A DNA stretch of 64,000 bases from Psammoneis japonica (GCA_008632985.1 QPGO01000151.1:62001-126000); one strand, 5' to 3'; positions 1 to 64,000 are shown, counted from the first letter of the stretch. Numbers and translations are program-made. The notes: generated by a model not told the origin, from the sequence alone.

Positions 1-939
1 AGCAACAGTCAACCAAAGACATTGATGTCATGTGCAAAAACTCATTTGGACAGGAAGAGGGAGATGTGCTCCAAAGGAAGTCAACTGCAGGGGCTTCCAG
101 TCAAACTTTGAAGATGACACCCCATCAATGGCAAGGTGCAGTCATAAAGCCAAAATGATCCACAAGAACTTCTGCAAAATTTTTGCCCAAGGGTTGCAGC
201 AAAAAGATGCAAAAGGGATTCAACAAAGAACAGCTGAGAAAAAAGCATGAGCTGCAAAAGAAACAACGGGCCAATCACATGGGGGAAGAAAGAAACCAAG
301 CTCACAAAAGAAGGAAACAGGCAAGGTTGAAGGAAAATGTCAGCAAAGAATCAGGCAAGGAAGGATTCAACGAAAAAGAGGGCAGTGATGCAGATGGCAA
401 TGGTGACATCATGCAGGAGATTGAAGTGCAAGAGGAAGGTGACTTCCAAAACAACAAAGGGGATGAAGGCCAGGACAACCACAAGGAGAGTGTGCATGAG
501 GACAGCAAAAAAGATGAAATTGTTGAGACTGAAGAAGGTTCCGTGCAGCAGATGGCAGTCACCAGCTCAGAAGACAATGACAGAGATGACAGCAAAGAGG
601 AAGGTGGCCTCCAAAACAATGACAGGGACAAAGGCCAGGACAGGAAGAGTGAGCACAAGGACAGCAAAGATCAGGGTGGGCACAACAAGGCTGAAAGTGC
701 ACCCAAAGAAAGGGCAAGTGATGCCAGTTTGGCAGAGCTGAGTGGCAGCACTGATCACTGATTTGCAGAGGGGCTTTCCTGGAGCATCGCAGATCTCCCA
801 AACATGCAGTGCCACAAATCCATCTGCAGGTGCTCATCCAGTGGTTCAGTTGCATCACACTGTTTGGCAAATGTGATGATTCGTTGGCATGGTTCATTTT
901 TGCTCAACAAAAGTGGCCAAGGCCATTGCCACTCATCCC

Positions 940-1297
940 ATGCAATGTTGATGCAACCATGTGTCAATTTTGCATTTTTTCTGTTGGTCAAAGTGGCTGT
1001 GGCCATTGCCACTCCCGCACAAAATTGATGCAGCCATGCGTTGATTTTGCACGTCGATCATGCATTTTTTCTGTCAGCCAAAGTGGCTGTGGACATTGCC
1101 ACTTGCGTGCAAAATTGATGCAACCACGCATCAATTTTGCATGTCAATTTTGTGCAAGTGGCTGTGGCTGTTGCCACTCCCATGCAAAATTGACATGACC
1201 ATGCATCGATTTTGCACTGTGGCTCATGTTGTGAGTGACTCCAATTGGCAAAACACCAGAGATGCAAAATTGATGTGACCATGTGTTGATTTTGCAC
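940..1297. repeat. Five degenerate copies of a ~34-bp palindromic unit, period ~75-90 bp
   Basis: Units like tgcaaaattgatgcaaccacgcatcaattttgca at ~941, 1018, 1108, 1183 and 1263; most spacers share gtggctgtggccattgccactccc. Confidence 0.8.
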
Positions 1298-1404
1298 TCA
1301 TCTGTCTGTCTTTCTGCATGCTGAGCACCTGATGCAGAACACCTCACAACCTGACCCCAGCCCCTCCCTTGCCAAATCCACTCTTTGAAGTCAGCCAAAA
1401 TGAC

Positions 1405-1520
1405 CATTGTTTTCCTTGACGTCAGCCAAAACAATGGGTTGTTTTCCTTGACATCAAAAAAAAAAAACAGTTTGTTTTCCCTGGCATCAACAAAAACAAC
1501 AGGTTGTTTTCCTTGTCAGA
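1405..1520. repeat. Short degenerate tandem repeat (gttttccttgacrtca..aaaaca x4), possibly subterminal repeats of a DNA transposon
   Basis: Four similar units at ~1408, 1440, 1474 and 1505. Confidence 0.5.
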
Positions 1521-1619
1521 GCAGACTCATCATCGTCCATGATGGCAGAAAACATCTGAGCATCAAACAACAATGACAGCCATCAATCCACAACAAACTT
1601 CAGTCAACAGGAGATGTGA

Positions 1620-4600
1620 AAAATTGTCCCCGCGAAATGACAACAACGATGCCAATTCATCTGCAACAAGTGACATCCTCTCTTGGAGAGGCAAACCACA
1701 GAAACCCAAATTAAACCACCAGCCGCACTGGCTTGGGAGGCCAAGACACATGGATGCAAGTCACAGGTGCCTGGCCTTGGTGCTGGGACATTGCAAAAAG
1801 ATGCAAGAGCAAAGGCTCCAACACCGCTCCCCCGTGACCAATTTTGCAAGCAGATCTGCCAAGTTCATTTCTGCACTCTCCTTGCCAACATGAATGGTGC
1901 CCACTGCAACCACCTCTCACACCACATGGCAGTTGATTGCACCATGCTTCTTGTGCAAAACCAATTCAGGAACACTTGCATTTTTTGCCACACCATGATC
2001 ATCACAAAAGACACTTGCCAGTCCTTCAAGAGGTGTGCCACACATTCAAAGCTTGTGGCACAAAGCAACAATCAATTCTTTGCAAATCTGCATCACAGCC
2101 AACGCTTCCAAACATCACCAACTCAACAGTGTTCTGCCACTTGCTGAACCATGTGATTGGCGTGTCATTGACAAACATGAAGATCCCACTGTGAGACCTG
2201 TGAGACCTGTGAGTTGCAACATTGCCTGCATGGTTGGCATCAATGGAGGCACAGATGTTTGCCGGGTTGCCCCAAGGCTTTGGCACTTGTGACGGCAGTT
2301 CCTCCTTGACATCCCCACAAAACTCAGTCCAACCAGCATTTGAGTTAAAAACAGATTCTTCAATCACTGGTTCCTTTGGATCAAATCCAATGCTTCTTCA
2401 TGTGCGCAAACACATGGTGCAATGCTTCAAGATGTCCCTTCCTTGGATTAGCCTGACACTGAGACAGGGTTGAAACTTCATGCAAAATGTCAATGCAACC
2501 CAACTTGATTGCCCAACAGCAAATTCCCATCAACTGCAAATGCCTGTCCACTGAATCGGCACCCAATTTGTCTGTCACATCCAGCTCCAGCTTGTGCTTT
2601 GGGGTCAAAGGATCCTTCAGGCAGTTCTTCAAAACTTCCCCATTGCCATCGTCATCCAAGAGGCCTTTGACAGTCTTGACAGCCATTCTTGACGCATGCC
2701 CCAGGGGGGAGCTTGCCCAAATGGCACGACCATCCTCAGTCTGAACCTTCTCAACATCAGCTCCAAGGTGGATCTCCAGCTCTCCTTTGCTGCCAGGTTT
2801 CATGGCAAAATGCTCACCCACAGCAGTGACAACAGACTTTCCCTGATGGAAAATGATCAGAATGTCATTGACATGAACCAGAAGCATTTCACAACACTCA
2901 TGCCTGTCCTCATGAGTCACCATGCACAAGCAAACATCAGGATCTGCTCTCAATGATTCAAAGCCTGAGTTGTGTTAGACCGATGCCAACACAGACCTCC
3001 AAGAGCATCCTGAGTTCTTCAGACCATGCAATGCCTGAGTGACAACTGGCACCTTGCCCTGACACTTGCCACATTCCTTGCCACCTTCAAACCATGTCTT
3101 CTCTGCACACGGCGCATTTGAGCATGCATTCTTTAGATCAATTGCTGCAATGTCAATTCTGTTCAAAGCTGCCAACAAGAAACCAAGCCATGCACTGTCT
3201 CTAGAAAAAACACTTGAGTGCATTGTTGATGCCAGAGCCTCTGTTGTGTGACCTCCTGCCACAAATCTGGCCTTTCCAGTGAAACCATCTTGTCATTGAA
3301 AACCAAATGACATTTGATCTCCTGACAACCATGCAAAGTTGTGCTCTTGCCTTCCCAGACAACTTGTGGGGTTTCAGCCTTGTGCTCACACCATGCCACT
3401 TTTACCTTCTCCATTTCTTTGTCAATTTCATGGGCCCAACAATCTGTCCCCACTTCCTGATCAATCTGCAATGCATCTTCTGTTGATTTGGGCAAATGCA
3501 CTCCAACCTTGGGAGTCACACCAGCACTTCTTCTCAACCTTTGATGTGATGCGGCTCCACTTGTGTGAGACATGTGTGACCCACCAAGCAAGTGCCGGTT
3601 CCTCTGTCAACCTGTTTGCAACAGCACACTCAGCAACTTCAATTGGGTCAGACTCTTTCAGATCTTCAAGCTTGACCCATGACAAGCTGCCATCTTTCCA
3701 TCCAACCAAAAATTTCCAGCCCTTTGTCATGATTTTCTTCTTCTCCTTCCCATCAGTGGTTCGCATGGTGCCCTCAGAAATGGGTGTCACATCACCCATC
3801 TTTTTACAATCCTGCATCTCCTGTGAGACAGAGTGCTGGTTGGCTTTGCTGTGGACCTGAGCAAACACATTCTCGGCAATTACATTGGCCATGGTGTGCT
3901 TGTCTGTGGTCCTGCCAGTGTGCTCCACTTTGTGCTCACGAGTGTCAAACAATGGGTTTTGGTGCCAAGTCCCAATTGGACGCTCATCCTGTCCTCTTGT
4001 GCATTTGGTTGCAACACCTGGCCATTCACCGTCAGCCCCAAAGTCAAACATGAGTTCCATGCCCAGATGCTGATCAATTGCCTGGTCATTGTCATCTTCC
4101 GGTCATTCATCCAGCAGCAACATGTCCCCGCATTCTTCATCTGTTGGCATGACACTGCCTTCACACTCCACACTGGGGTTGCCTTCGACAGCAAAGTCAT
4201 CCAATGCAAATGCCAGCGCAGCTTCGTCACCATGCAAAACAAAGCCAGTGTCATCCAATTGTGCTTCGAGTTGTTCATTGAAGTTGTCAACCTCAACACA
4301 AATGTCAGGCTGCACCATGTCAGCCTGCGTCACATGCTCCACTGATGTCTTAGAGACTGTCTCCCCACTTTCTGCAATGATCCAACAGCACATGTCCGAC
4401 CCTGCTTTGTGTGAGATGCCAAGCCATCATGCAAGCCTTTGTGAGTCATCCATTGCACTTGGCTTGTTGGGCCTGTCCCCCCACCAGACTAAGTCACAGA
4501 AACCAAAGTCTAAATGCTCGCCTGTCTCCGGCATCTGACCAGCAACCTCTTCATGCCCAGTCCTCTTGTCTCTTCTTCTTGCCATGCATGACACCAGTTC

Positions 4601-7600
4601 TGATTCACAAACAAGACCAAAGTCCCACAGCCATTTTGGCACCTTCTTCTTTGTCTCATCCTCAGCCACCAACGCTTGGCCAAGAAACCGATTTTGTGCT
4701 CCACTGCCTGATTCTGGTTCTTTTGACCCTGTTCTGATGTCCTCAGCTGAATCCTTGTGCATCGCACATGATTCACAAATTTGGTGCTGCGTCCAGTGAA
4801 CTCTCCTGCTCCATCTGACATGAGACATTCTGGTGCACCCATGTCATCTGCAAATTCAACGAGAGACAAGCTTGCCTCCGACCTTGCGGTCATTGGCACA
4901 ACCTTCACAAATTTGCCCTGAGTGCAAATGTTGGCACACATGTTGCCGAGCAAAGACTTCACCTTGGACAATGAAGTGTCCATGGACCATGTCCCTTTCA
5001 GTCATTTGCGGTGCAAATCCAGGTGATCCACCCTCACTCTCCTGACATTGGCTGAGTTGCCATCCAAACACCATGCTGTTTCCAAGCCAACATTCCACTT
5101 CCAAGCCAACTCCTTGGCATTGATCTTAGAGTGTTGATGCTTGCTGTGCAGCTCTCTGACAGACCTTTCTTTGCTGTCCATGTCATCACGATGTGCACAA
5201 GCCACATTGGCTGAACCAACAAGCCTGTCACAGAATGATTGGAGGTGGCAAATTGGGGATGCACTGGTTGGCTCCACTTCAACTTTGCCCATCAAACCGC
5301 TTGGAACTTTGCCCTGTTGCATCTCATCTCCTCGATTTGTTCCTGTCACATGCCAGAGATCAACAATTAAACAGCGCGCATCTTTGACTGTTCCCCAGTC
5401 CATCCAGGTGAGCCCATGTCAATTTCTGTTGGATTCCATGCATCACCAGTCAGGAGCACAACCGGCAAATTTTGCTCCTCCAAATCTGTTGGAACACAAG
5501 ATTTGAAGGATGCAATTGTCCCCGTGGTGGTGAAGGGGATGAAAGACTCATCAGCTTCAATGCCAAAACCATTTCGGGTGTCGCAAGGGTTGTCATGCAC
5601 AGGCAAGTTGTGTGCCCAATGTTGATTGGGATTCAAGAGTGAGTGTTCCATGTCTGTTCCAAACCAAAGCATTCAGTCACCAACCAGCAGACATTCATGA
5701 GTCGTCTCTGGATCCGTCCACACAGTGCAACAATGCACCACAGGAACCTGTTTGATTGGCTCATGAGAGTCTAAGAAGGGGCAAACTTCACACACTTTGT
5801 TTGTCAATTCCACAAGTTTCCAGTTTGCTCCAGTGCAACATGCATCCACATGAGCATCACATTCATTCTGAGTGGCAAAAACAGGTGTGGTCAAATTCAT
5901 CATTGAGGCAGAAGTTGTTGATGAAATCACACATTTCAATGTTGCAGCAGTGCGCCTTGTTGTCACGTTTTCATTCAATTGGAAAATTGGGTGGGGTTCA
6001 GGCAACAGCAACAAGAGTGACACAAGCAAGACAGACAAGTGCACCATGTGCACCAACATTCCAGCAGCTTTGACCACCACCCCCAGCAGTCAAGTGAAAC
6101 TGTGGTGAGCTCCATGACTGAAAGCACGACCATTGCGTCCGCTGCGATCATGATCACCACCGCAACCATGACTGCCACCTTCATTCTGTGCCTGTTTGGA
6201 CTGTTTGCTTTGGTCCTCTTGATGAACGTGGGCTTCTGCTGCATGCCTGCTGCTGCCACCATCATGTCTGCTCCTTCCTGCAGGAGAACCGCGACCACCA
6301 CTGCATCCTTGCCCCATTTGTTCATGAGCACAGAAAACACAGTTGATTCCTCCGTTGAAACAGAGCTTGTCCCATCATTGAGGAGAAAAGCTCCTTGTGG
6401 GGTTGGAAACATTGACCCCATTGATCACAGTGGCATGGTCACCGCCTCTACCTTGACCCTGACCTTGACGTCCACCACGTCCTCTGCCGTGGCCGCACCC
6501 CCATGGAAACCACGGCCGCTGCTGCCTCCATGGCTAAATTTGGAAATCTTGCATTTGGTGTGACACCGGGCTTCCAACTGGGCACCTGCATGCAAATGAG
6601 AGACTTTGGATGAGAAGAAAGCACATGCCCCCGCAAAGTCACGAGGATGCTGGCTGCCAATGACAGCCATTGCTGCAATGAGACGTGGATCATCTGACCG
6701 GATTCCTTTCAAAAGAATTTCCACCTTCTGTCACTCAGACTTGTGGTCATCCAGGGATTTGTCCAAAGTGGCAAAAGCACTGGCGAGCTTCCAATTGAAT
6801 TTCTCAAATGGGAGTGACCCTTCCTTCTTGTAAAATGATGATTTGACATTGGCCGTTGCCAGGTGAATGCACTTGCTTGGCTTGCATCACCAAATGGTTC
6901 CATCTGAGCCCATCCTGCCATGTCAATCAAATGTTCCTTCAGCACACAAGATGTGCTGCAATTGTCCTCATCAAATGTGCTCCATTCAATGGCAACTGAC
7001 ACACATGCTGCTGCTGAGCATCCGTGAACATGGCTGGAGCCAACATCCTCCTTGCTGCGTGCCAAAGTGGCTCCTTCAAAACACAAAACTTCTGTGCCAA
7101 GAGATTCAAGAAAGCATCCTCACATGCATTGAAGTCCTCAGACTTAAACTTGATGAGACTGCTCACTGATGCATCTGATTCAGTGTGCTCCTTTTCAACT
7201 TGTCTGCCGTTTGGAGCCGAAGTCATGGCTGCTGCATTAAAATCTGCCACAACTGGCACTTGACTCCTCTTCAAATGATCCTGGCACCACCATGCCAACG
7301 CCTGCAAGTTCTTGATTTGGGCAGTGCCAAGAGTCACATGGCCATCTGCTGCAGTGCACGAGCCACCCTTTGCGCCAAGTCTTCAACATTGTGGTCATTT
7401 TCCACAACTGCAATGTTCTCCAAGGTTGCAAACCCTTCACAGAAGACCAATCTCGCCCTCACACTCTGGTCAACAACAACACAAACTTGTAAAACTGCAT
7501 CAATGTCAGCTGCCACCGCCAAAGCCGCAAGTGCTGCTGCCGCTGCCATCCTGTGGCAAAGAAACACCAATGTCCCCCCATGCGGGGAACAAGTGGCTCT

Positions 7601-8202
7601 GTGAGTCTGCATGGTCATGGAGGTTGCACTTTTCCAGTGTTGTGATGATGGGTTCACATGGCCACCTGACATCAGGGTGATCAGTCCTGTGTCGTTCAAC
7701 TTCATTGAGCATGCACTCGGGCATGCTGCCCACCAACACCGCAGCCCCCTCACACCCATTGTGTGTGTGAGGACAGCGACTGTCTTTGCGAGTGTTTTCC
7801 ATTGCAAGCTGTTCTGTGGACTATGCAGGCAACACGAGATGCATCTTCATGCACAACAATCTGAATTCTGATGCCATGCATACGATTCAGTGCCGATTCT
7901 ACAGCTGCACGTTCCATGCAAGCAACACAACGAACAACCGTGCAGGACGAACTGCGCTTGCAACCATTTCGATCAGCGTTTTGCTGATGGCTCTGATAAA
8001 GCAAATAAATCCTGATGTAATGAGAGGACGAGTGCAACACCTTAAGCCTAAAGAAAGTGGCAACAATGTCAATGTGAACCTGGACCTGATTAGATTGTGG
8101 GAGAGAACAATCATCACCAGTGTGTCTGCCCTGACCAGGGACAGACCACTCCATCCAAATTCATGGTTCCACCCGCCCGCCCATCACCCGATATCATCGT
8201 CA
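1620..8202 (-). mobile_element. Degenerate Ty1/copia LTR retrotransposon (diatom CoDi-like), order gag-PR-IN-RT-RNaseH
   Basis: Minus-strand fragments in copia order: gag (~7560-6430, IKNLQALAWW); protease (NECDAHVDACCTGAN, HSLLNPNQ, ~5900-5400); integrase (MDTSLSKVKSLLGN..LMSDGAGEFTG, ~4980-4300); WKDGSLSWVKLEDLKESDPIEVAE linker; RT (IDLKNACSNAP, LVHVNDIL for YVDD, ~3300-2400); RNase H (DANHAGNVAT, NLADLLAK, ~2300-1795). PPT-like atttcgcggggac at ~1626-1638. Confidence 0.92.
7990..8202 (-). repeat. Possible 5' LTR (TG at 8202 to CA at ~8013) and PBS-like TATCAGAGC (7990-7998) of the copia element
   Basis: Minus strand TGACGATG...TTACATCA followed ~14 nt later by TATCAGAGC, the core of the tRNA-iMet PBS TGGTATCAGAGC. 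No matching 3' LTR was seen. Confidence 0.35.
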
Positions 8203-9559: not shown

Positions 9560-11650
9560 CGAAAAAAATTGGCATGTCTGATCATCGTCGCACTGTGGAA
9601 ATGGTGTGGCACAAGCAGCAGATCACTCGTCTCCATTCTCCATCTCATCCGTTTTGTGCATGACACCACACGCAACTGTCCCGATGTGCTTGGAAATGTG
9701 AGGTCACCATCAGAGGGGCCTCACCAATCAGCAACGGGTGTCACTCATTGGTGGGTGCCTCCTCCACCAGAACCTCTCACCACAACTTGGTTTGTTGCAA
9801 CCTTTGTCAGAGCTCAAGTCTTCTTTTGGCTGGATCTTGCAACACTGCTGGTGCAGCTGGAGCCCACAAGGTGGCATGGCTCAATCCCCCTTCTCTTGTG
9901 ATTTGTTTCTGTGGGAAGCCAAGCCATTTGGAGCAATGCCAGGCCCAGCAAAATGAAAAAAGAGTGCGCCGTTGCGTGCTCATGTGCAGCCAGCCTTCAC
10001 ACACAAAAATTCCAAGCAGCAAGACCAAACAATGCTCCACAGATGAAAGAGAGCATCCACCTCAAAAAGAGGAAAAGTGTGCTCAGAGCAGCAGAGAGAA
10101 CCCAGCAGCTCCTCTCTTGGAAGGCAGGGTGAGCATTTCTGGAGAACGAAGTTTGTGCTCTTGCTCAAAGAGTGGGCTTCTTTGTGAACTTGCAGCTGGT
10201 CCAAAGCACAGTGAGCAAGGAAGTCCACACTCACTCATTGTCTTGCTGATTGTGTCAGATTGTGCAGCTCATTTTGGGAAGTCTGCTGCTCATTTGCAGC
10301 TTGTCAAAGCCTTCCCCCCCCCCCCCCCCTGTGGCAAATGCCAAAGCAACTGTGAAAAAGGCATGTTTGGAACAAAAGTGCATGAAAAAGCACAACAGTT
10401 TCTTGGCCCAAAGTCTTTAAAGAATGCAAAGCACTGCTTTCACAGTGCTGCACCGAGGATGGCACACAAGTGAGGCTGAGTGTGTTGTCCTGTCATTTTG
10501 ACGGCTCAAATGTGAGTGTGGTTTTGAGCAGCTGGCACTCTGGCTCTTGTTGTCATGAGATTTTCTGGTGTCTAAGTTGGGGGCAAGGCAGAGAAAATTG
10601 GCAGCACCATGGGAGCTGGTGTGCACATGCGTGCCCTGCTGCCATTTGACTGCACATGATGTTGTGTCTGTGCTCTCCCACTTGTGACAGGTGCCCAACC
10701 TCCTGGCAGGCAGTGCCTCATGGAGCTCACATTTGACAATTTGCCCTCAGCATCACATTGCAGCCTTGCATGTGTGGGTTGAAGTTGGCACCAGTGTGTT
10801 CGGCATTTGCACTTGTGTGCCACAATGCAGGAGAGGCAGTTTTGCAGTGCTCGCTCATTTTGCGAGGCCATTGAAAAGGCAGGCTGCTTTTTGCAGCAAG
10901 AACTCAGATGCGTGGGGGAGCCAGCTGCATGACCACAGTTCTTTCTCCCACTGGCTGCTGGAGCACTTGCTCTGAGTGCACATCATTTTGCACCTGGTGC
11001 TCTCTACATTCTTGCAGCACTCCTTCTCACTTGTTGTCAATCATGAAATCGTGCAGCAATGGTTCTCAACAAAGCCTCCCAGGGAGACAAAATGTGGGCT
11101 CACACCAGTGCTTTCTCCAGCTGCTGGGCTCTTGTTGGCATCACAGCACACACCTTGACTGTTTTGTGCCACCACCACTGCATTGTCAGCCAACTCCATT
11201 GAAAGACCATGCCTTGAAAATGTGTTGTTGACACCACCCACTCACAGAGGTTGGTGTGGTCAGGTGTTGTTCATTTTGATGATGCTCTTGACAAGCAGGA
11301 AGCTGTGCTCTTTGGTCCAAGCTGGTGCACTTGCTTGGAGTTGTGAACACACCAAACCTGGAGCAACTCTTCCATCTCATGCTGTCTCAGCTTGTTCATG
11401 GGGTTGCAAATTGGCAACAATGGCTGCTGCCCTCACTCAGTGGTGCAAGCACATCAAGGAGGTCTGTCACCTGCTGGGCCAGTTGCACTTGTTGAGTGAA
11501 CTTGTCCTGTGGGCATCCAACTAACTGCCTCTGTCATCTGCTGCTTTTTGCGCCTGTTGTTCTCGAACGGCTGCCATCTCACGACATGGCTTGGTTGCAC
11601 TCCCACCTGTCCCACACCACCCTCTTGCCCTCTGCCACCCAGCTTTGGGT
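9560..11650. other. TpA/CpG-depleted block 2 (unidentified degenerate repeat)
   Basis: TA nearly absent; Tyr-free, Cys/His-rich spurious ORFs; no recognisable domain. Confidence 0.8.
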
Positions 11651-11652
11651 TT

Positions 11653-11679
11653 GAGAGAGAGAGAGAGAGAGAGAGAGAG
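11653..11679. repeat. (GA)n microsatellite
   Basis: gagaga run of ~13 units at the edge of the depleted block. Confidence 0.9.
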
Positions 11680-11893
11680 CAGCAGGCAGGACCTTTTGAT
11701 CCTTGCAAGCGCGCTCGACTGTCTTCGATGCGACGCACCGTTGAACAGCGGTGACAACCGCAAGGCAGACGTCGTTTGTACAGCATGTGACTGTTCTACC
11801 AGGTTACCATAGTTCTGCTAGACGCTTACCGTGCAGTACCGTAACTAGAGATCCCAATGGGAGAAAATTGTGTAAATCATCACCACATGCTGG

Positions 11894-15149: not shown

Positions 15150-17480
15150 ATGGATCTGGGCTGCGAGTCAAGGAGGAGGCTGATGGGTCCCAATTTGTGC
15201 AGTCCCAGTGGTGGCTGACTCACTCACTTTGCACCAAAAGCTTGGCAAAGAATTTGCAAATGGGGCGGCTCTGTGGGCCGTGGCCGAGAGTCAATGATGA
15301 GGCTGGTGGGTCCTGATTTGTGCAGTCCCAGTGCAGTGGTGGCTGATTGTCAATGTGCCTCACCCTCTTCATCATTGTGTGACCCTCCCTCACCCTCTGC
15401 ATCATTGTTCATTCCTGCATCCCACCCTGTGCCTCAATTCTTGACTTTCACTGCCAGCTGTGCTGGTCAATTTGTGCCTTCATGCTCTTCTTCTGCTGTC
15501 AGGGTATCCAATGCACAAGCAGCTTTTAGCTTGACAGCAATATTGGCCCAAGAAGCTGACTGAGTTTAATTTTGATCAAGAGCATTTGCACTGCACCAGA
15601 GAAACAGGTGGGAGTTGGTGGCTGAGATGCCACATTTTCATCAATCATTTGCCCTGAAACTTTTGCAGATGGCACAAAACCCAGGCACCATTTCTGGTGC
15701 CTGTCCACACCTGTTTTCCTGTCCCCACACATCTTTCCAGCTCCTTGACGTTGTCATCATCACCCAAGTCAAAGCCAATGGCACTCCTAACTTCCTCTTT
15801 TTTGTGGCTGGTCCTTGACTTCTTGTTTGTGCTCTCTCTGTGGGCCCAAAAGGGGCTGTTCTCCAGTTGCACTTTGTCTTGTTTTGTTTTCCTTCTTTTG
15901 CTGCTTCCTCCCAACAAAGTGAAACTTTTCTCATGGCAGGAGGGGAGCAGGAGTTGCTGGTGATGTTTGCTTCTGCCTTTTTCTCCAGGTGCAAGAGACA
16001 TTTGAGTTTGCACTCAGCAGCAGAAAACCCCGGCACCTGCAATGGCCAGCCCCAGTTGGTCCACTGAAAGGGGCTTTCTCTACCTGCACTTCTTTGGTGT
16101 TCTCATTGAAATTTCCACTGCGGGCAGAGCAGCAGGAGGTGTTGGCAATGTTTGCTTCTCTTCCTTTTCTCTGGGCCCCGCACAAGATCACTTGGCTGGC
16201 AGCAGGAAGCCAGCGTCTGGCACAGCCAGTCAGTGGGCCTGCTTGAGCCAAACAAGCCTGTTGTGGTGCAGGCTGGCTTTTGACCGTTTTGATTTTCCTT
16301 GGCACCATTTGCAAAGACAAAATCTTGCCCAGTGTGGCACCTCTTCTGCCTTGACAATGACTTTTTCTTCTTTTGTGCTGTGCCAGTGGGGAGGAGTCAG
16401 CTGTTTTGCTGCCACTGCTCATTGTTGCTTGTCGTGCTGGTGCTGCTTTTTTGGGCTGTGTTGCTGGCTGGACAGAGCAGATTTGCTCATCTTAACAATG
16501 GCAGCCTTCTGCCCTTCTCTGGGAACTTGTGCCGGCTTCAAGAACATGTCTTTGATGATGCCATGCAATGGGCAAGCTCTGGATCTCTGGGGGTGTTGCA
16601 AAACTCTCACAGAAGGGAGGGCTGTGACATTGTTCACATTTTTTGATTCTCAGTGCAAAACTCATGTGCACTTCCTCTGTGACACTTGTGACTTTGGACT
16701 CATTTCATGTCAGTTTGCAGCACAATGTTGGGCCATCCACTGACAACTTTCAACTTTTTTTTGCACAGCAGCTGTGCTCTTCTCTTTTGCATCTGCAAGC
16801 AGAGTGCCATCCAGCCCTCCCTGTGCACGAGGATTTTCCAAAATTTCAAGTGTGCAAAAAAAGGCACAAGAACAGCAACACAAAAGTGGCCAGTCTTTTG
16901 ATGTTGAAGACAAACATTTTGCTTCCCAACATGCAAGCTGCGGAGCTTGTGCACACAGAGAGTCGACACTTGCTCTTGCACATGTTGGGTGGCACTTGCC
17001 TTGTTTCCAGGCCAAGAAAGTTGCTGGCCCAGCATGATCTGATGCCCTTGTGCTCATTTTTGTGCTGGGCAGTGCACGTTGCTCTGGTGCTGGGGTGTGC
17101 GACTGCAGGCTGGGGGGGGGCACAGAAAAATTTTTGTTGGTGCAGCCGTGGTGCAGAGGAGTGACTGCAGGAATGGGCCACACATTTCATGGGAATGTGC
17201 TGCTGGCCCAACTTTGCAGAAAGCAGTGCCCGCCCCCCGTTTTCAGGTGCTGGTGTGTGCCCTCGGCAGCAACTCTCTGTGCTGTGATGGCGTGCTTCCC
17301 CCAGCCCTTTGGCTGCCTGGTGTGTGCTCTGCGGCTGCTCTTGGCATGCTAGCTCCACGGCTGCTGTGAGCCACTGGTGGGGCCTTGCCACGGCTGCACC
17401 GGAAGAGAGCTGAGCCATCATTTTGTGTTCCCTGGCCAACGGTTGGTGTGCATGCTGCCGCCCGGATGCGCAAGAGCAAA
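15150..17480. other. TpA/CpG-depleted block 3
   Basis: TA nearly absent; local duplication at ~15155-15220 and 15270-15347; no recognisable intact ORF. Confidence 0.8.
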
Positions 17481-17632
17481 GGGAAGGTGCATGAAGGAAT
17501 CCGGAATCAGATCTCACCGGGGTGGGTAATGGCGGGAAAATCTTGCCGCCCGGCATTCGGCATTCCAATTCGATCGGCGAAACAACACAAAACCTGCGAA
17601 GTGAAGAAGGCCATTCTTTGAAAGCGTCGACA

Positions 17633-40150: not shown

Positions 40151-41134
40151 TTCGCTCAAATGAGTATTTCTCATGAGTGTGGCCGAAGAGACGAAAGAGA
40201 GTTATTTTCAAATTGCGAAGTCTCTATTCATATAATGTTAGACCTTGCTTGATTGCGTGATTGTTTCTTCGAGCAATGTCTTATGACTTGTAGTCTAGGG
40301 ATTTCGGTGTGTGCACTCACTATTGAATTCTATCATCCCAAAGCCGTGGACATCAAAGCCAGAAAACGTGCTGTCTGGTCATGCGTGAGGCACAAAAAAT
40401 GAGCAAAGAAGCTAGCAGAAGACCCTCCTCCAGTGCCTTCCCTTCTCGATTAGAGAGCAGCTTTTTATGAGAAATTTGGAGATCGACCTGAAAAGTGCTT
40501 CTGCTCTTGCAGCTTTTCTGCCACATGGGCAGCATGCGAGATTGCTTGGAGGCTGCACTCTAGAAGTGGCATTCACACAAGCAACGCAAACACACATGTT
40601 CCATGCTTCAGGAAGCTCACCACTCACATTGGAGTGATTGACAATTGTGCCCATGTCAAGATCCCTTTCTTGCACAAAATCTGCTTCTTCCCTGACATTT
40701 TATTTAACTTGCCAAATTTCATCACAGCGTGCTTTTGACAGACTCACATTGTAAAACTGGCACCCATGTTGCTTTCCCCCTTTGCTTGTGTGCTTCTTCT
40801 TGAGCAAGTGAGTGACTTTGGAGCTCTTGCCAGGCACACTTCAGGTGCAAAAGTGGCAAGCACATGAAAGATGTCCCCAAAGGAAGAAGACGCTTGTGAC
40901 AGCACAGCCAGCGCCTGATCTCTTTTCCAGAGCTGTGCACTCTGTTTTGAGCTGGTTTGTTCTGACGCCTCAACAGTGCCAGCCAAGTTGCTGAAATGCA
41001 GAGCTCCAGGTTTGCTGGCCCCTCCAAGAACTGTGAATGACTGTGCTTGTCTCTGCAACCAGCCAATGCATTGTGCTTGAGTTGAGAGCTGCTTGGCTGT
41101 CTCACTTTGTGTGCACTCCTCCTTTGCAATCAGG

Positions 41135-41582
41135 TGCAATGTACAGCTCTACTAACAAGAGTTAATGTATCACGGCGACGTGTTACAGCCTTTAAATGTC
41201 ACAAAGGGCGTGACAAAATAACTTTTTGTCTGCATGCATACTGCATTATGAATTCATAGCGGAGTGGTTTATCGTATGACCATTAGGCAGGAGGCCAGGG
41301 GTTCGAAACCCGAGTGGGAGTTGTCTGCAGCAACGTTGATCACTGTCGAACGCGTAAAACTCTGTGCAGTTCTGTATGTTCCTTCGTACGTACCCACACT
41401 GTTCCGCCAAAACCGTGCAGTGTCAGCACACGTTAGTAAAGAGCCGCATGGACGCGTGATACATGGGGAGGAGTGCAATATACAGCTACTAATAAGAGTT
41501 AATGTATCACGGCGACGTGTTACAGCCTTTAAATGTCACAAAGGGCGTGACAAAATAACCTTTTGTCTGCATGCATGCTGCA
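41135..41582 (+). mobile_element. TRIM-like non-autonomous LTR retroelement (448 bp)
   Basis: Direct repeats at 41135-41245 and 41474-41582, each TG...CA with an imperfect terminal IR (TGCAATAT/ATACTGCA). PPT GGGGAGGAG directly before the 3' LTR. 4-bp TSD CAGG at 41131-41134 and 41583-41586. Confidence 0.85.
41257..41310 (+). promoter_or_regulatory. tRNA-type RNA polymerase III internal promoter (A and B boxes) inside the TRIM
   Basis: A box TAGCGGAGTGG (41257-41267) fits TRGCNNARYGG; B box GGTTCGAAACC (41300-41310) fits GGTTCGANNCC; spacing is tRNA-like. Confidence 0.7.
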
Positions 41583-44512
41583 CAGGAGCATTGATGGGAA
41601 CTTCCATTTGCCTTTTGATCACTGATTTTGATTTTGCCTCATCTCAAATCCAACAAAATAAAAAAAAATCCAAAAACAACAAAAACGTGAGATTCTGGCC
41701 AACACTCTGACAGCAACAATCATCACCATCAATTGCCCAACAGAAGTTGCCGCAGAAAGATGCAATGCCTTTGCATTTGCACCAATCATTTTCTTGCAAA
41801 CAACATCATCATCACACTTGTTGGCTCCAAATGACTTGGACTTCTTGCTCTGCAATGTGCCCTTTTGGTGTGGTGTCATCTTGCTCAAACAAACTGCCGC
41901 GGTGTGCTGCAGTTGTTGGCGATGTGGTGGCTGTCAATTTGCAAGTCTTGCAAGAAGCAGGCTTTTGGATGACATGTTCAATCTGCACCCCAGTGTCTTT
42001 GCAAAACCAGCACTGATTCATTTCTGCCTGCAACACACAAAACCAGCATGGTGGCCATGTTGTGACAATGTCCTTTGAATCTTTTAACTGGCGCCATTGA
42101 CAATCTTTTTGCTGCAAACACTGAGCTTCAGCAAGTGGCCTTGTGTCCTGTCAAAACAGCAGAAATGTGCACACCTGCCACAGTGGGTGACTGTGCCTGC
42201 TTTTGTTTGAGCCAAGAGCGCGCAACAACAAATGTGGTTGTGGCATGTTGCGTGGCAAGAAAAACATCTTGCAGCCCAACTGGCTGCATTTGCCCATGTG
42301 GACAGTTGCAAAAAGGCAAACACAACCCCAAACAAGGCAGCACCTGTTGTCCCTTCCCATTGCTTGATTGTGAGTTTCAAGTGGCTGCAGTCATTGGTGC
42401 ACTCACCAATGTGGCTCCCACACACCACTTGAACAAGAAGCCAAGGACTGCATCTTTGGACATGTTCACATGAGTGGTTGTTGATCAGCACAAGATGCTC
42501 AAAAGTGTCAGTGTGTTCTGTTGGATCTCCTTTGTGGCAAAGTTCTTTGCTGCCACCAGCTCTCCATGATGGAGATTGTCACCATGGGATGCTCTTGAAG
42601 ACTTTCATGCCACCAGCTCAGCTGGACCAGAGAAGGTCAGTCCAGTGCTGCTGCCCTCTCTCCAAGACCCAGTTTGCAGTTTGTTTGATCTCAAGCTGTC
42701 GTTGGAGCCAAGGCTTCCAATCAGGCAGAGCCCACCACAATTGCTCAATGCAACTTGAAGCACATGCTCTGCTGTGTTGGAATGCAGCTTGACAGCTTGT
42801 GCATCATTCTGCAATGGGCTCTTCTTGTGTGATGCAAGTGTGCGACTTGTTGGAGAGCAGAACCATCTCTAGAATGGAACCAAGATCCTGTGGCAGCATG
42901 CTTGAACATTGAACTGTGTTAGAAGGGTGCCAAGGACATTCCACTGGGTGACCAAAGTGTGCACAAATTTGTCAAAGATGGTGATTCTGCAATGATGCTG
43001 AAAGGATGCTGTGTCAGTCAAGATTGAACTCATGTGGGGTTTGGCAAATGTGAAGGCACCATTTTGCCAGCCAGAACCAACAGCACTCCTGATGATCCCT
43101 GTTTGGTGCAAGAGGACCAATGCATGGATTTCATGCTGCAAAGGGGTGCTGGAGGTCATGATGTGCATGGCGTGTCCATGGAGAACAAAAAGGCAGTGTT
43201 TGTGGTTGCTGTCATTTGGTTGTGCCAGTTGCTTGCCATCATTGATTTATTTTAGGAGGCCTTTCTTCAGCACAAGCCTCTCCTTCCTTTTGACCCAGCA
43301 GACAAAGCTGTCGCTCAAGAAATGGCAGAAATCATCAATGCCGGTGCACAGCTGCTTTGACAAATCATGCACCTCCACAAGCTTGAAGAATTGTTGGAAG
43401 GTGAAGTCCAGGTGATTGACCAGGCCAGGATCACAAATGTGAGATGGGTGCTGCCTCATCAGAAAAGGTCATCATTCAATGGCAGGCATTGTTGAAAAGG
43501 GCCGCATCTTCTTGGGACATTTGCTTTCACACTTGTTGAAACCACAATGGTGCCCAAACTGTGCAGTGCTTGTCTTTTTTGGGCCAATGTTGACAACGTG
43601 TGCCACATGTTGGTGCAAATCTCAACAGATTTTGTCTTGATCATGGTGCGTGTGCAGCTTCGGGCACCCCAAAAGACTTGATGACTCACCATCAAAGCTG
43701 CGCTTTTTTGATGTTTGACACGCACACGCATGCACGCATGCATGCATCTCACTGATTCCTGAAATGTCAGTTGTGCAGGTCAATGGCAATGGAAGCAGTG
43801 CCCCGCTGAAAGCACAGTGTTGCTGAGACAAAAAATCTGCAGAGAGAATTGTTCAGTGTGGCACTCCCAGCCAGGGCAGCACGTTGTTGGTTGGCGGCAC
43901 TCAGCATCATGTTGGCAGTGAGACATCTCTTGCCTGAGCTGCTCAATCTCTGTGTTTGCATCTTTGAGCTTTGCATGTGCATCATCAAGCTTTTCTTGTG
44001 GGCCTCTCTTGAGCTTCAGTGCAGACGTGACTCAATTTCCAGCAGTTTGGACAAAGGCGTTTGATCAAACCGAGACTTTTCTTTTGCCTCAACATCAGAG
44101 CATGTGCTTCGAAGGCCTCATGAACAATCTTCGGTGCAACAGCAGAGAGGGCAGCCAGGGATTGTGCACTAAAGTCGAGCAGAGGGCAGCATCATTCTTG
44201 AGACAAATGCACACAATTCAAGAATGATCAAGGGCAAAATTGTCGGGTCACCGTGTTCGTGCGTGCGTTTTTCACGCGAGAAAGGGAAGCACACGAGACT
44301 ACACATCATCGCAGCCGCGACTCTTCAATCTTGTATCGTGCCGCTTGCTGAAGCGAAGCTGTAACCTTACTTACCGGTACGTACAGTAAGTAGCCCATCA
44401 AGCCAAGATCTACGGTATCTATCTTATTACTCTGCATTTTTTCTTTCGACATCACTACTACTTTCTAAACTGTAACCCTTCAACAAAATTTAGTAGAAAG
44501 CAAGGGACCAGG

Positions 44513-49648: not shown

Positions 49649-51977
49649 AGTCCTAGGTGCTAAATCTTAAAGGATAGATCTGGCTGTGATGTTTGTCAAA
49701 GTTAAAGTCGCGTTTTTATGACATTGTTGCTTGCGAACCACATGGAGATATCGCTTCTTCCGCGATCCTTTCAGTCATGCCGAATCACGCACGAGGCATA
49801 AATCTCACTACTACTCTCTACAGTACAGTACATACTGTAGCTATGTAGGGAGAGGGCATTACGAATATTTATGCCCACTTGCATTCGATACGTCAGATGC
49901 TATTGCCATCGAGTGACCCTTTCTCGTCACTCACCGAAACCGAGCACCCACTCGACTGGCGTGAGTTCGCGCGGAGCCTTCGTTTGTTCCTCCTTGCTCT
50001 GCACTGCACTCTCTACATGGGGGCGGCTGCTGCCAGCAGAGAACGAGCAGAGAGAGCTGCCAGCTACAGAGAGTAGAGAGGACAGGTGCTGCTGTGCTGA
50101 CACTGCTGCTTTGGGTGCAGCAGAGACAACTTTGGGCAGAAAGTTTGTTCGCGCATCTTCACTTCTCACCAACCCATCATTGGTGTGGCAGCAGAGTGTG
50201 CAAGAGCTGCTCCACATTGACTTTGCAGCTGTGACCACACACAAAAGTTCTTCCTTGTTCTGTGTGTGCAACAGACCAAGAGTTCTGCCATTGTTGTGGA
50301 AAACATCATTCTGTTCCTTCTGGGTCTCTCATTGTCCTCTCCTGATGGGGTGCGGCAAACAAGCTCGACAACTTTTTGCTGCAGTTGCTGCCAGACAACG
50401 GCCGCTGTCGCACATCTTGTCGATGGCTTGCTTGCTTCCTCCTTTGAAATGAGAGCTGTGCAATGCCATTGACTTAAAATCCAAAGGAAGCAATGACAAG
50501 AGATCATTTTTTGTTTTCATGGAGAAGCTCCTGCAATCATGAGCTTGCTGCCCAGAGTCTCTTTCCTGACAGCATGACGACCGCCCTTGTTGAAAATCAA
50601 ACACCACAGAAGGATGCACAGTTGGTCAGACATGAGCCTTCCTCAAGTGTCCAAAAATTTGATGCCCGGTTGTCAGAGTCAGCTGGCTCAGCATGGCTTC
50701 TGTTGTTTGTCCAAGAGTCTTGATGCATCCAAAGACACCATGCTGAGCACAGCATGCACCTGTCTTCATCACCTGACAGACTTTCAGCCAGAGCACTTTT
50801 CACAATCTTGCTTTCAGTGTCACATTTCATTCTGAATGTTTCCATGCTGTCAGTGCTTGTCCAGGCAGCTCTTTGCTTTTGAGCAAAGCCAGAGTTTTGT
50901 GAACAAAGCATGGCGTTTCTGTTGGAATCATCATGTCATGTGGCTGCAATGTTGCAATCTTTGAGCCAAGACTCAAAAAACTGCAGTCCCATGTGTGTTG
51001 AGCATTGTTGACAAACAAAGTCAATGCAGCAATCAAGTGAGAAATGCAGTGCCAGAGTTTTGCTTTTGCGGAAGAACGTCAATGTCAATGATGGGCATAC
51101 CCCTTTTTGTCTTGAGTCATGCCAAGCAAGACAAATGCTCTGGCTTTGGCAGCACATCTTGGGAATGAGAGATTGGACAAAGTGCTTGCTTCATCCTTTT
51201 CTTCAGCTCCCTGAAACCATTGACAAATCTGGCTGTGCTTGGTCTTTCTTTGGCACGGCAAATGACGATGGAGCCACCCACTGGGATCAGCTGATGCATT
51301 TGAGAATGCCCGCATGTGCAAGGCACTCTGCTTCCTTGTGTGGCGCAGCTTCATGCCAACAAGGCACTTTGTGCAGACATCCATGGTGTGGCTCTGTGTC
51401 TTCTTTTAGCAGGATGTCGCAGGGTTCTTCTCCTTTCCACTGTCCCAGTGTCCCATTGCTGAGTGTCCTTGAGAGGCGTGCCAGCCTCAGAAGCAGTGCT
51501 CACTTCCTGACATTTCAGTGGAAGAAGGAGCACCACAGTCATTGGCTCATCTGCTGCCACACATTGTTGGCACCCACAGTTTTGTCAAATTCTTCCATTT
51601 GCATGCCAGGGAAAGGTGCCAATTTCTTGCCATGTGTTGTCAAAGATCTCTCTGGTCAGTGTGTCTGCAACTCTGCCTGTGTTCTGCCCACACAATTGCA
51701 GGGCTGACACCCTCCATGAAACAGAAAAATGCAAAGTGCTGCATTGGAAACAAGAAATGCAGGACAAACATCCAAACAAGTTTCCAGGAGGACCAACAAA
51801 GACAGCATCACACCATGCACCAAACCAGAGCAGCTTGTGGCAAATGTCAGCAGCCCATGGCACCCATGTCAGCAACACAAACAGCCTTGGTGAGCACATC
51901 TGTGGGGTTGACAATGCCTGCAACATGTTTTTGGCAACAATTGTCTGGGCCACCTGCTGGCTTTTAATTGCAAAGAA

Positions 51978-52121
51978 GTGTGTGTGTGTGTGTGTGCCTG
52001 TCATCAACACGTTTGAGTCCCAAAGGGACTTGGCAAGATTTTTGCCATGTCTTCTTCTTCTTCTTCTTCTTCTTCTTCTTCTTTTCTTCTTCTTCTTCTT
52101 CTTCTTCTTCTTCTTCTTCTT
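51978..52121. repeat. (GT)n and (CTT)n microsatellites
   Basis: gtgtgt run at ~51978-51997; cttctt run at ~52050-52121. Confidence 0.9.
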
Positions 52122-52282
52122 GTTGGTTGCCAGCTGTTTTTGTCAACAAAAAGCAGAGATTTGAGGAAACCCCAGTTTTGCCAGCAAAAGAGCTCATCTG
52201 CAGCACTTGTTTTGCTCACCAGTGACACAAGCATGTGGGAACCAAACACAGCTTCAGCACACCATGCAAATTGGGGGGGGGG

Positions 52283-52476
52283 NNNNNNNNNNNNNNNNNN
52301 NNNNNNNNNNNNNNNNNNNNNNNNNNNNNNNNNNNNNNNNNNNNNNNNNNNNNNNNNNNNNNNNNNNNNNNNNNNNNNNNNNNNNNNNNNNNNNNNNNNN
52401 NNNNNNNNNNNNNNNNNNNNNNNNNNNNNNNNNNNNNNNNNNNNNNNNNNNNNNNNNNNNNNNNNNNNNNNNNNNN
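52283..52476. other. Assembly gap (N run)
   Basis: Run of n bases following a G homopolymer. Confidence 0.99.
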
Positions 52477-54356: not shown

Positions 54357-55232
54357 CAGCATGCCTCAGCACTGGACAACACGGCAAGACTGTGCACAGC
54401 CTCTTGCATGTGGCAACGCAGCATTGTCAGCATGCACCTGGGAAGCACAACCACAGGAGGGCGTGGCTCCATGTCTCAGGCAATCTAGAAGGATGCCAAG
54501 AGAGCACCCGTGTGAAGCACACTGACCTGTTGTCTGGCCCACAACAGTGGCGTGATTCCACACGATGATCACTTGTGCACAGCGCGCGATGGTGTGATTC
54601 GCATGATCCACAATGTGAATGCACGATCGATTGGCACAATCCAAAATGCAAATGAACAGCTGATTTGACAAGATTCCCCATTCACACAATTCCATTTCTC
54701 TGCACATGAACCAGCTCACAATTTTCACAATGACACAATTGAAACACATCTGCATTTTTGTAGATTTTGCAACCTGGCGCACTGTGCGGGAGTGACATTG
54801 CTGTGCCCCATGCATGCAATGGGCGACAAAAATGTGGATGTGTTTCAATTGTGTCATTGTGAAAATTGTGAGCCAGTTCATGTGCAGAGAAATGGAATCG
54901 TGCAAACAGGGGATCTTGTCAAATTGGCCATTTGTTCACATTTTGGATCGCACCAATCGATCGTGCATTCGCATTGTGGATCGTGCGAATCATGCCATCA
55001 CACGCTGTGCACAAGTGATGTCATCATGTGGAATCACGCCACTGTTGTGGGCCAGACAACAGGTCAGTGTGCTTCACATGGGTGCTCTCTTGGCATCCTT
55101 CTGGATTGCCCAAGACATGGAGCCACACCCTCCCACAGTCGTGCTTCCCAGGCACGTGCTGACAATGCTGCATTGCCATGTGCAAGAGGCCATGCACGGT
55201 CTTGCCGTGTTGTCCAGCACTGAAGCATGCTG
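54357..55232. mobile_element. Foldback / long-TIR element: ~405-bp inverted arms with a ~64-bp spacer
   Basis: 54357-54761 is the reverse complement of 54826-55232 (e.g. cagcactggacaacacggcaaga / tcttgccgtgttgtccagcactg). Mirrored ORF translations appear on opposite strands. Confidence 0.88.
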
Positions 55233-63990: not shown

Positions 63991-64000
63991 CGCCAGTTCC

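Follow-up and report, generated by a model that had tools for sequence, protein, structure and literature searches.

TpA-restricted hypermutation of foreign DNA has a single prior description, a 2026 preprint on the integrated viral DNA of an unrelated alga, Bigelowiella natans (Mettrop et al., bioRxiv 10.64898/2026.01.13.699255). In the parts of the preprint drawn on here, an ADAT2-like protein is the candidate agent, and ongoing episodic activity is described in mutation-accumulation lines. Its main text never uses the words context, flanking, trinucleotide or tetranucleotide (0 occurrences of each). RIP of ascomycetes, as far as the cited account covers it, also consists of dinucleotide-specific transitions that are limited to repeats, with context as the diagnostic (PMC2621366). 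Adenine deamination is also described on RNA: the bacterial tRNA adenosine deaminase TadA acts on the motif UACG in a hairpin loop, with relaxed UAUG-type motifs on overexpression (PMC10027721), and Tad2/Tad3 (ADAT2/3) carries out fungal sexual-stage A-to-I mRNA editing (PMC9600606, PMC11156358, PMC10027721).

A literature search found no description of TpA erasure in diatoms. In the 64-kb stretch of Psammoneis japonica DNA analysed here (the window), two-state segmentation delimited six TA-depleted blocks, 29.3 kb in total and not assigned to a strand, at 1..7879 (block 1; TA 23, CG 112, CA+TG 1791 in the segmentation), 9591..11706 (block 2), 15169..17456 (block 3), 40489..41140 (block 4), 41564..44241 (block 5) and 50083..64000 (block 6). 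Observed/expected ratios in the blocks were 0.04 for TA, 0.18 for CG and 1.84 for CA/TG, against 0.61, 1.00 and 1.10 in gene regions of the same base composition. T at -1 was the condition for loss, A being lost solely when T precedes it. The loss was restricted to repeat blocks; gene regions were spared, as was a 550-base tandem repeat within them that carried no TA mutation (TA vs TG/CA made up 15 of its 105 differences). Block edges were sharp, with no partly mutated transition zones at 500-base resolution. The initial 780 bases of block 3 are an insertion missing from some source-sample contigs (joint 15168>15949). Between blocks 4 and 5 lies a 423-base unmutated island within depleted DNA (41141..41563, no strand; TA 31, CG 24), with 110-base direct repeats on either side, which serves as an internal control. 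Self-comparison of the window gave 19 repeat pairs, 0 of which had one member in a depleted block and an unmutated partner. In block 6, read-through translations gave no recognised Pfam family, and its open frames were not longer than expected by chance.

The window displays what was described in B. natans, namely TpA loss with CpA+TpG gain, on both strands, with repeats hit and genes spared. As far as the text of the preprint allows comparison, the two also share TpA as the only target, strand-dependent TpG/CpA products, foreign or repeat-like DNA as substrate, genome clusters poor in TpA and rich in CpA+TpG, and a proposed adenine deaminase. They differ in that this host is a diatom and not a chlorarachniophyte, that erasure is near-complete here and that CpG is lost too, a loss the preprint does not report. 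RIP was considered and rejected, since the direction of mutation is opposite: RIP converts CpA to TpA (C:G>T:A) and so enriches TpA in the cited account, whereas here TpA is erased and CpA/TpG rise, and the genic tandem repeat has escaped.

Block 1 contains the relic of a Ty1/Copia-type polyprotein (RVT_2) on the minus strand at 1797..5921 (tblastn span against protein relatives). Searches matched it to 64 protein relatives, the strongest at E 7e-205, and for many of these PF07727 is recorded; the direct Pfam RVT_2 match in read-through translations of the block fell below the cut-off (E 0.002). The relic is full of TA>TG/CA and CG>TG/CA changes, in-frame stops included. At 28 conserved Tyr codons it now carries 15 His, 12 Cys, 1 Phe and 0 Tyr, and at 52 conserved Arg positions 21 Arg, 8 Cys, 7 Trp, 5 stops, 4 Gln, 2 His and 5 others. 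Since the depth of source-sample contigs across 1335-8004 is ~10x single copy, block 1 is a multi-copy repeat. Source-sample contigs compared with 1-20000 differ at 787 places, and among the differences between copies transitions predominate (161 A>G, 160 C>T, 125 G>A and 139 T>C, against 15-34 per transversion type). TG-vs-CA differences between copies in this part of the window include those at 4929-30, 16788-91 and 17190-91. These differences, together with the replacement of conserved Tyr by both His and Cys, mean that both strands were hit. The 80 metagenome Copia loci compared with block 1, or with the intact relative L052 considered below, had at most ~66 % nucleotide identity over long matches and up to ~76 % in stretches <300 bases; they are used as composition baselines, not as ancestors.

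The original prediction was that TA sites surviving in 1700-7500 are mostly YTAR, with no RTAY, implying a T-A-Y target. All of the survivors that it listed exist, to within 1-2 bases, and the region holds 21 TA, comprising 15 YTAR, 4 YTAY, 2 RTAR and 0 RTAY. They are TTAA at 1712, 2346, 5368, 7145 and 7238; TTAG at 2449, 2976, 3134, 4351 and 5127; CTAG at 3202; CTAA at 4490, 4511, 5772 and 6535; TTAC at 3403, 3805 and 3881; CTAC at 6449; and GTAA at 6831 and 7490. Block 1 as a whole, which includes this region, has 15/5/3/0 survivors (YTAR/YTAY/RTAR/RTAY, plus strand). Of the 4 TA in block 2, 3 are YTAR and 1 YTAY; block 3 has 8 (5 YTAR, 1 YTAY, 2 RTAY), block 4 has 4 with YTAR in 2, block 5 has 7 with YTAR in 5, and block 6 has 29 (17 YTAR, 6 YTAY, 5 RTAR, 1 RTAY). 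YTAR is the top class in 6/6 blocks. One further depleted block had been said to behave alike apart from a single ATAC, which is real (51098, block 6), and GTAT at 15505 and ATAT at 15541, both RTAY and both in block 3, had been overlooked. Across the six blocks 75 TA remain, as 47 YTAR, 15 YTAY, 10 RTAR and 3 RTAY, so that YTAR makes up 63 % of survivors; with block edges trimmed by 200 bases the counts are still 43/14/9/3.

The YTAR excess far exceeds chance whichever of four baselines is used. Gene regions of the window have 284/356/364/370 in the same class order (chi-square 84.6, p 3e-18), and 1700-7500 by itself departs from non-depleted window DNA (284/1374 YTAR; Fisher p 1e-6). In 72 unmutated Copia relatives (17,618 TA) the classes are 16.7/29.6/19.0/34.7 % (p 8e-26), so that NTAN survival, once normalised to genes and unmutated elements as had been proposed, is not uniform. 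Among all YR steps in the depleted blocks 23.4 % are Y..R (binomial P(>=47 of 75) = 5e-13), and CA+TG steps alone, the back-mutation expectation, would yield 23.2 % YTAR (P = 4e-13). These baselines bear on the idea that mutation did not discriminate at all and that the excess stems from ancestral tetramer make-up, back-mutated TA or selection on sites. Its basis is that ancestral nucleotide sequences are represented by stand-ins (gene regions and Copia relatives 43-73 % identical, for 75 survivors in one window) and are not known directly. Neither the composition of the Copia relatives nor back-mutation comes near the observed share, however, and 12 of the 14 TA within the Copia frame match residues conserved in relatives, and so fit the ancestral protein, which marks the remaining TA as survivors rather than new arrivals. 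Selection is ruled out by the in-frame stops of the relic and the failure to save any conserved Tyr (0/28), and many of the survivors (TTA Leu) could have mutated without changing the residue. We regard this explanation as extremely improbable.

The survivors were described by a model with two independent strands, where the base that follows the A on a strand fixes how readily that strand is hit. The fitted hit parameters, which derive from cells of 0-17 counts, were 0.51 for A at +1, 1.18 for G, 2.25 for C and 2.50 for T. The model accounts for all 16 NTAN counts (deviance 9.2 on 12 df against the saturated model) and is far better than uniform survival (likelihood-ratio statistic 84.2, 3 df). 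Relative survival was 0.165 for YTAR and 0.008 for RTAY, and since their geometric mean (0.037) is close to the 0.035 observed for the mixed classes, the product rule of independent strands holds. Per strand, survivors relative to those with A at +1 were ~0.14-0.18 for C or T and ~0.5 for G, and four base levels fit better than a two-level Y/R split (p 9e-4), with G intermediate. The T-A-Y target originally predicted is thus supported by the survivors in a graded form (T ~ C > G > A) and not as a plain Y/R rule, with moderate support from the products (see below).

Bases beyond +1 also differ around survivors. Among surviving TAA strands, A is found at +2 in 40/74 vs 178/581 (p 1e-4) and at +3 in 35/74 vs 156/581 (p 6e-4); around survivors on both strands its frequency is 0.52 vs 0.28 at +2 and 0.41 vs 0.27 at +3. 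TTAA is the best-preserved tetramer (17 vs ~54 expected at gene density). Such protection past the nearest neighbour on both strands, with TTAA kept best, would be expected if TA in T-run/A-run flanks were shielded and no enzyme read the bases, but we consider shielding quite unlikely, and its variants (rigid A-tracts, exclusion from mutator-recruiting chromatin, or N6-methyladenine at TAR) no more probable. The +1 effect is strong alone and follows a gradation over A, G, C and T instead of mere A-richness, and TAG, which has no A-tract, survives at twice the level of TAC/TAT. The tracts are also just 2-4 bases long, which is too short for nucleosome exclusion.

Since RTAY is a self-complementary class, survivor counts alone cannot split T-A-Y from R-T-A, in which A>G would be determined by a purine at -2 and not by the 3' pyrimidine; both are equally compatible with those counts. 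The product counts moderately favour T-A-Y. With the gene baseline, the excess of TG.Y over CA.Y was +12.9 per kb (bootstrap CI 7.5-18.1, 0/2000 <=0), positive in 5/6 blocks, block 1 giving -0.1 per kb. With the Copia baseline, block 1 showed YTGY +14.6 vs YCAY +3.5 per kb, a difference that was positive for 99 % of 70 single-locus baselines and is contrary to R-T-A, which predicts YTAY>YCAY; RCAR +12.8 vs RTGR +12.4 was neutral (+0.4 per kb, positive in 60 % of baselines). R-T-A also predicts a higher Cys share after purine, whereas the Cys:His products of conserved Tyr were 6:14 after purine and 7:4 after pyrimidine (Cys 30 % vs 64 %), a contrast that is non-significant (one-sided p 0.08 under a relaxed conservation rule and 0.20 under a strict one) and corresponds by hand arithmetic to a likelihood ratio for T-A-Y of ~8-23.

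The intact Copia relative L052, in a separate record, carries the same survivor signature as the depleted blocks, although it may be a non-independent locus. Its TA o/e is 0.14 and its classes are 30/25/3/1 (YTAR/YTAY/RTAR/RTAY); 18/19 of its Tyr codons follow a pyrimidine vs 889/1975 in 45 relatives (p 7e-6), Tyr is down to 1.3 % and its Arg codons are solely AGR. The ORF of this element is intact, and its pattern combines the effects of mutation and of selection. The 5' flank outweighs the 3' flank in L052 (RTAR 3 vs YTAY 25), as R-T-A would have it, but this asymmetry is explained by selection retaining Tyr codons. Overall we judge a 5' determinant very unlikely.

We propose that silent repeats are probably subject to a mutator that changes TpA to TpG/CpA, with the two strands hit independently of each other and the 3' neighbour governing the rate. 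It would act on silent repeat blocks and convert A:T pairs on both strands. The chance of an A being hit would be raised by C or T at +1 and lowered by A at +2/+3. YTAR, in which both strands read TA-purine, would be hit slowest, chiefly as TTAA and as CTAA/TTAG within T-run/A-run flanks, and RTAY would be driven nearly to extinction. We infer, with moderate support from the products, that what matters is the base next to the mutated A on its 3' side. The CpG loss in depleted blocks would be a separate process, the ordinary decay of 5-methylcytosine. The agent would be an enzyme that reads sequence, and the simplest candidate is a DNA adenine deaminase that recognises T(-1)/Y(+1) and converts A to I, which is read as G. 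Judged from the sequence, we are evenly divided on whether the agent is a deaminase of some kind, and that it is TadA-like is a doubtful suggestion.

A>G on one strand is T>C on the other, so the chemistry is not separable by counts. T-A-Y A>G and R-T-A T>C give identical outcomes, and all counts fit equally well a route in which the T of 5'-R-T-A-3' becomes C. Oxidised thymine is able to mispair with G, and the lesion could be 5-hydroxymethyl- or 5-formyl-uracil from a TET/JBP-type enzyme, with a 5' pyrimidine, especially a T-run, being protective. We hold such thymine chemistry, in general and in this enzymatic form, to be unlikely; to our knowledge no thymine-directed system yields near-complete TpA-specific T>C. 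Adenine deamination is also what is proposed in the sole paper on a TpA signature, in the parts of it used here (10.64898/2026.01.13.699255).

If the agent is an adenine deaminase, its flanks can be set against those of known enzymes, within what the cited sources cover. TadA shares the T/U immediately 5' of the target A and the pyrimidine immediately 3', but it acts on RNA loops, whereas nuclear DNA is hit here on both strands and T serves as well as C at +1. The preference of TadA for C at +1 is compatible with the parameters fitted here, which are broader (C ~ T over G and A), and the G at +2 (TACG) is not scorable since CpG itself is erased in the depleted blocks. Fungal Tad2/Tad3 likewise strongly requires U at -1 and is influenced by +1 to +3, but it edits RNA rather than DNA and favours A/G with C depleted at +1 and +3, while the sites that escape in the depleted blocks are those with A/G at +1 and A at +2/+3; this preference, as given in those sources, was therefore rejected, being opposite in sign at +1 and +3. 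ADAR would share the A>I chemistry proposed here and disfavours G at -1, but its substrate is dsRNA and its neighbour preferences are weak, with slight G/A at +1, in contrast to the absolute T at -1 and preferred pyrimidine at +1 found here (PMC9600606). On this analogy, the +1 preference would resemble that of TadA (UACG) and be opposite to that of fungal Tad2/Tad3 and ADAR.

The T-A-Y flank preference is the new part of this TpA erasure. Neighbour preferences are the usual means of distinguishing the enzymes behind mutation patterns, and the preference for T-A-Y over T-A-R together with the 16-tetramer model makes the identity of the enzyme testable. A candidate must deaminate TAT/TAC far better than TAA, the reverse of fungal ADAT2/3 mRNA editing. 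The flank signature also lets annotators separate old TA survivors from new sites, and helps in the search for transposons evading the eraser. Live Copia elements like L052 may be evolving around the eraser by purging R-TA-Y, in an arms race. Tentatively, and with rather low confidence in the combination, the eraser may be a distinct TadA/UAC-type DNA deaminase, reading T at -1 and a pyrimidine at +1 and avoiding purine runs, not of the ADAT2/3 or ADAR kind, that Copia elements evade; if real, it was perhaps horizontally acquired and is used as a genome defence. If this is true, the arms race between a TadA-type eraser and live Copia elements would be legible directly in tetramer counts.

In the window, ordinary gene-bearing DNA is interleaved with blocks in which TA and CG are almost gone and CA/TG is roughly doubled. 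Two-state segmentation placed six depleted blocks at 1–7879 (block 1), 9591–11706 (block 2), 15169–17456 (block 3), 40489–41140 (block 4), 41564–44241 (block 5) and 50083–64000 (block 6). Combined they span 29.3 kb and hold 75 TA and 301 CG, compared with 1374 TA in the 34.5 kb making up the rest of the window. With both strands pooled, the observed/expected ratios (o/e) of TA, CG and CA/TG were 0.04, 0.18 and 1.84 within the blocks and 0.61, 1.00 and 1.10 outside them. Base composition is the same in the blocks as in the rest of the window, and at a resolution of 500 bases the blocks begin and end abruptly. The window comes from the nuclear genome of a plastid-bearing, diatom-like organism and carries a PAP_fibrillin gene at 11894–12766, between blocks 2 and 3. 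A TA-poor segment of 780 bases at 15169–15948 is an insertion polymorphism, absent from part of the source-sample contigs (joint 15168>15949), and its left end is the start of block 3. Within 1–20000 the contigs from run X2 (labelled 'DNA?') are confined to DNA outside the depleted blocks (15 of 30 bins), and a skip in them, 18973>19124 with ends CT..AC, resembles an intron; it is possible that they are transcripts, and if so the depleted blocks are unrepresented among them. Among the NCG contexts of all depleted blocks, TCG was lost most (survival 0.06–0.11 versus 0.14–0.27).

The TA dinucleotides left in the blocks were classed by the purine (R) or pyrimidine (Y) on either side. All 75 survivors comprise 47 YTAR, 15 YTAY, 10 RTAR and 3 RTAY, with YTAR the commonest class in 6 of 6 blocks, and trimming 200 bases off the block edges left 43/14/9/3, that is, no change. 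The stretch 1700–7500, from which the original prediction of a T-A-Y target had been drawn, contains 21 TA, namely 15 YTAR (TTAA 5, TTAG 5, CTAA 4 and CTAG 1), 4 YTAY, 2 RTAR and 0 RTAY. Every site named in that prediction was found, offset by at most 1–2 bases. The one RTAY it had listed, ATAC, is present at 51098, and two that it had left out are GTAT at 15505 and ATAT at 15541.

The survivors differ from the TA of the gene regions (284/356/364/370 in the same class order; chi-square 84.6, p 3e-18), with odds ratios of 6.4 for YTAR and 0.11 for RTAY. Since all changes are transitions, which keep the purine/pyrimidine class of each position, the pyrimidine-purine steps within the blocks themselves are also a valid baseline. 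These steps are flanked Y..R in 23.4 % of cases, for which the probability of at least 47 of 75 is 5e-13; for the CA and TG steps alone, the expected yield of back-mutation, the values are 23.2 % and 4e-13. Furthermore, a 14-protein alignment led to 80 Copia loci from metagenome contigs, 72 of them with normal TA and CG, and the 17,618 TA of these unmutated relatives are distributed 16.7/29.6/19.0/34.7 %. Against this baseline p was 6e-10 for the Copia element in block 1 (22 TA, 15/2/5/0 in coding orientation) and 8e-26 for all 75 survivors; with unmutated transposons as the reference, the flank bias increases. From the four baselines survival is therefore not uniform after the normalisation that had been proposed, and the flank bias of surviving TA is real and robust.

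The Copia element is the relic of a Ty1/Copia-type polyprotein gene (1797–5921, minus strand). It was aligned with 64 protein relatives (best E 7e-205), the nearest named ones coming from the diatom Nitzschia, and 751 positions are conserved among them. Of the 28 conserved Tyr, 0 are kept: 15 have become His, 12 Cys and 1 Phe. Of the 52 conserved Arg, 21 are kept, while 8 have become Cys, 7 Trp, 5 stop, 4 Gln, 2 His and 5 something else. These replacements are direct before/after evidence of TA>CA/TG and CG>TG/CA. CpG decay in the relic is strand-biased, coding-strand C>T (Arg to Cys, Trp or stop) accounting for 20 cases versus 6 of Gln or His. Fourteen TA are left in the aligned frame, 12 of them within a codon, or across two adjacent codons, whose conserved residues are still specified, for example TTA Leu (three times), CTA Leu, GTA Val, TCT-AGA Ser-Arg and TCT-AAG Ser-Lys (twice); the other two are in-frame TAA of secondary origin. 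The remaining TA are therefore mostly true survivors. Selection as the cause of their survival was ruled out, because the element is broken, 0 Tyr were saved and silent escape (TTA>TTG) was open to many of them.

We modelled the two strands as independently exposed, with survival given by exp(-(r[N2] + r[complement of N1])) and r set by the base 3' of the A. The fitted r was 0.51 for A, 1.18 for G, 2.25 for C and 2.50 for T; the differences between these values are robust, while their absolute level hinges on the assumed ancestral TA density. The model gave a likelihood-ratio statistic of 84.2 (3 df) versus uniform survival and a deviance of 9.2 (12 df, p 0.68) versus the saturated 16-cell model, and the four-level r beat a purine/pyrimidine split (p 9e-4). 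Per strand and relative to A at +1, survivors amount to about 0.5 for G, 0.18 for C and 0.14 for T. Bases further out are also skewed: surviving TAA strands carry A at +2 in 40/74 cases compared with 178/581 in gene DNA (p 1e-4) and A at +3 in 35/74 compared with 156/581 (p 6e-4), and surviving TAG strands carry A at +2 in 27/45 compared with 273/707 (p 0.007). The usual survivor is thus a TA with a short run of T/C before it and of A/G after it. These results support TA followed by a pyrimidine as the preferred target in graded form, T ~ C > G > A, with A at +2 and +3 also protective; the plain Y/R split first proposed is a simplification.

Since RTAY is its own complement class, survivor counts are blind to whether the mutated A is read by the pyrimidine 3' of it (T-A-Y) or by the purine 5' of the TA (R-T-A). 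The products are predicted to differ, T-A-Y turning YTAY into YTGY and RTAR into RCAR and R-T-A doing the opposite. Relative to the gene baseline, with strands pooled, TG.Y exceeded CA.Y by +12.9 per kb (bootstrap 95 % 7.5–18.1; 0/2000 resamples at or below 0), and the product excess by 3' base (A -15.1, G +2.2, T +4.7, C +8.1) follows the graded order of r. On this baseline the TG.Y excess was positive in five blocks and -0.1 in block 1. When block 1 was instead compared with coding sequence from the 72 Copia relatives, YTGY gained +14.6 and YCAY +3.5 per kb, and the gain of YTGY over YCAY was positive versus 99 % of 70 single-locus baselines. On the same baseline RCAR (+12.8) and RTGR (+12.4) showed no difference in block 1; an RCAR excess would be masked there because CpG decay falls mostly on the coding strand (20 versus 6 from Arg codons). 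At conserved Tyr, the Cys:His ratio was 7:4 after a pyrimidine and 6:14 after a purine under relaxed conservation, and 6:4 and 6:11 under strict conservation, a shift in the direction predicted by T-A-Y (one-sided p 0.08 and 0.20, respectively). Without being decisive, the three product tests point to the base 3' of the mutated A as the determinant, and we hold this reading with moderate confidence.

Some stretches of the window serve as controls. An island of 423 bases at 41141–41563 is unmutated within depleted DNA. At 41134–41582, direct repeats of 110 bases flank the island; they differ at 4 positions, of which 3 are TA versus TG/CA. The island includes a tRNA-like GGTTCGAAACC stretch and may be young, having been inserted after the mutation. 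Gene-like DNA contains tandem repeats at 24915–27137 and 34359–35595 (units of about 550 bases at 92 % identity, and shorter units). Copies of the 550-base repeat, the sole tandem repeat compared copy to copy, differ at 105/1631 places, only 15 of which are TA versus TG/CA, and TA-specific divergence is absent between them. The intergenic stretch 30001–31000 consists of simple repeats (tagag/ctact-type) that are TA-rich (o/e up to 1.7), CG-poor and not TA-mutated. In the window, then, being repeated is not enough to trigger the process.

One Copia relative from the metagenome contigs, L052, has a TA o/e of 0.14 and very low CG throughout its 6.4 kb, together with an intact ORF of 1423 codons (1574–5845 of locus positions 1–6400). 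Its 59 TA comprise 30 YTAR, 25 YTAY, 3 RTAR and 1 RTAY (p 6e-15 versus relatives). Arg at conserved positions is encoded by AGR only, Tyr makes up 1.3 % of residues versus 3.6 % in relatives, and a pyrimidine precedes 18/19 of its Tyr codons versus 889/1975 in 45 intact relatives (p 7e-6). L052 shows the same avoidance of the susceptible R-TA-Y as the window and looks like a live element from which that motif has been cleared. It may not be independent of the genome of the window. Either filtered mutation or evasion would account for this avoidance. Three other relatives (L073, L053 and L047) have strongly lost CpG (o/e 0.03–0.21) with mild or absent TA loss (0.47–0.82); depletion of TA and of CpG are therefore separable.

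A TpA-erasing process has one precedent, in a preprint on Bigelowiella natans, where A>G/T>C is reported for two regions of integrated viral DNA and solely at TpA, with about 230 de novo TpA mutations in mutation-accumulation lines; an adenine deaminase resembling ADAT2 is put forward as the cause (bioRxiv 10.64898/2026.01.13.699255). The words context, flanking, trinucleotide and tetranucleotide have 0 occurrences in the main text of that preprint, and our literature search for a TpA>TpG/CpA signature found no description beyond it. As described in the cited reports, the 15 mRNA sites that bacterial TadA edits in E. coli are all UACG, with UAUG and others added upon overexpression (PMC10027721); fungal Tad2/Tad3 requires U at -1 and, at +1 and +3, favours A/G and disfavours C (PMC9600606, PMC10027721); and ADAR has weak preferences, with +1 slightly enriched in G/A (PMC9600606). 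On these descriptions, T at -1 is common to the diatom signature, TadA, fungal Tad2/Tad3 and ADAR, whereas the diatom preference at +1 resembles that of TadA, though broader in that T is as good as C, and runs counter to what fungal ADAT2/3 shows. Chemically, the signature and fungal RIP are opposites. The link to an enzyme, which the original prediction had put forward as a hypothesis for a TadA-like one, is still a hypothesis, if now a sharper one. What is new here is the detail: the flank preference, the two-strand model and a seemingly live element that avoids TA.
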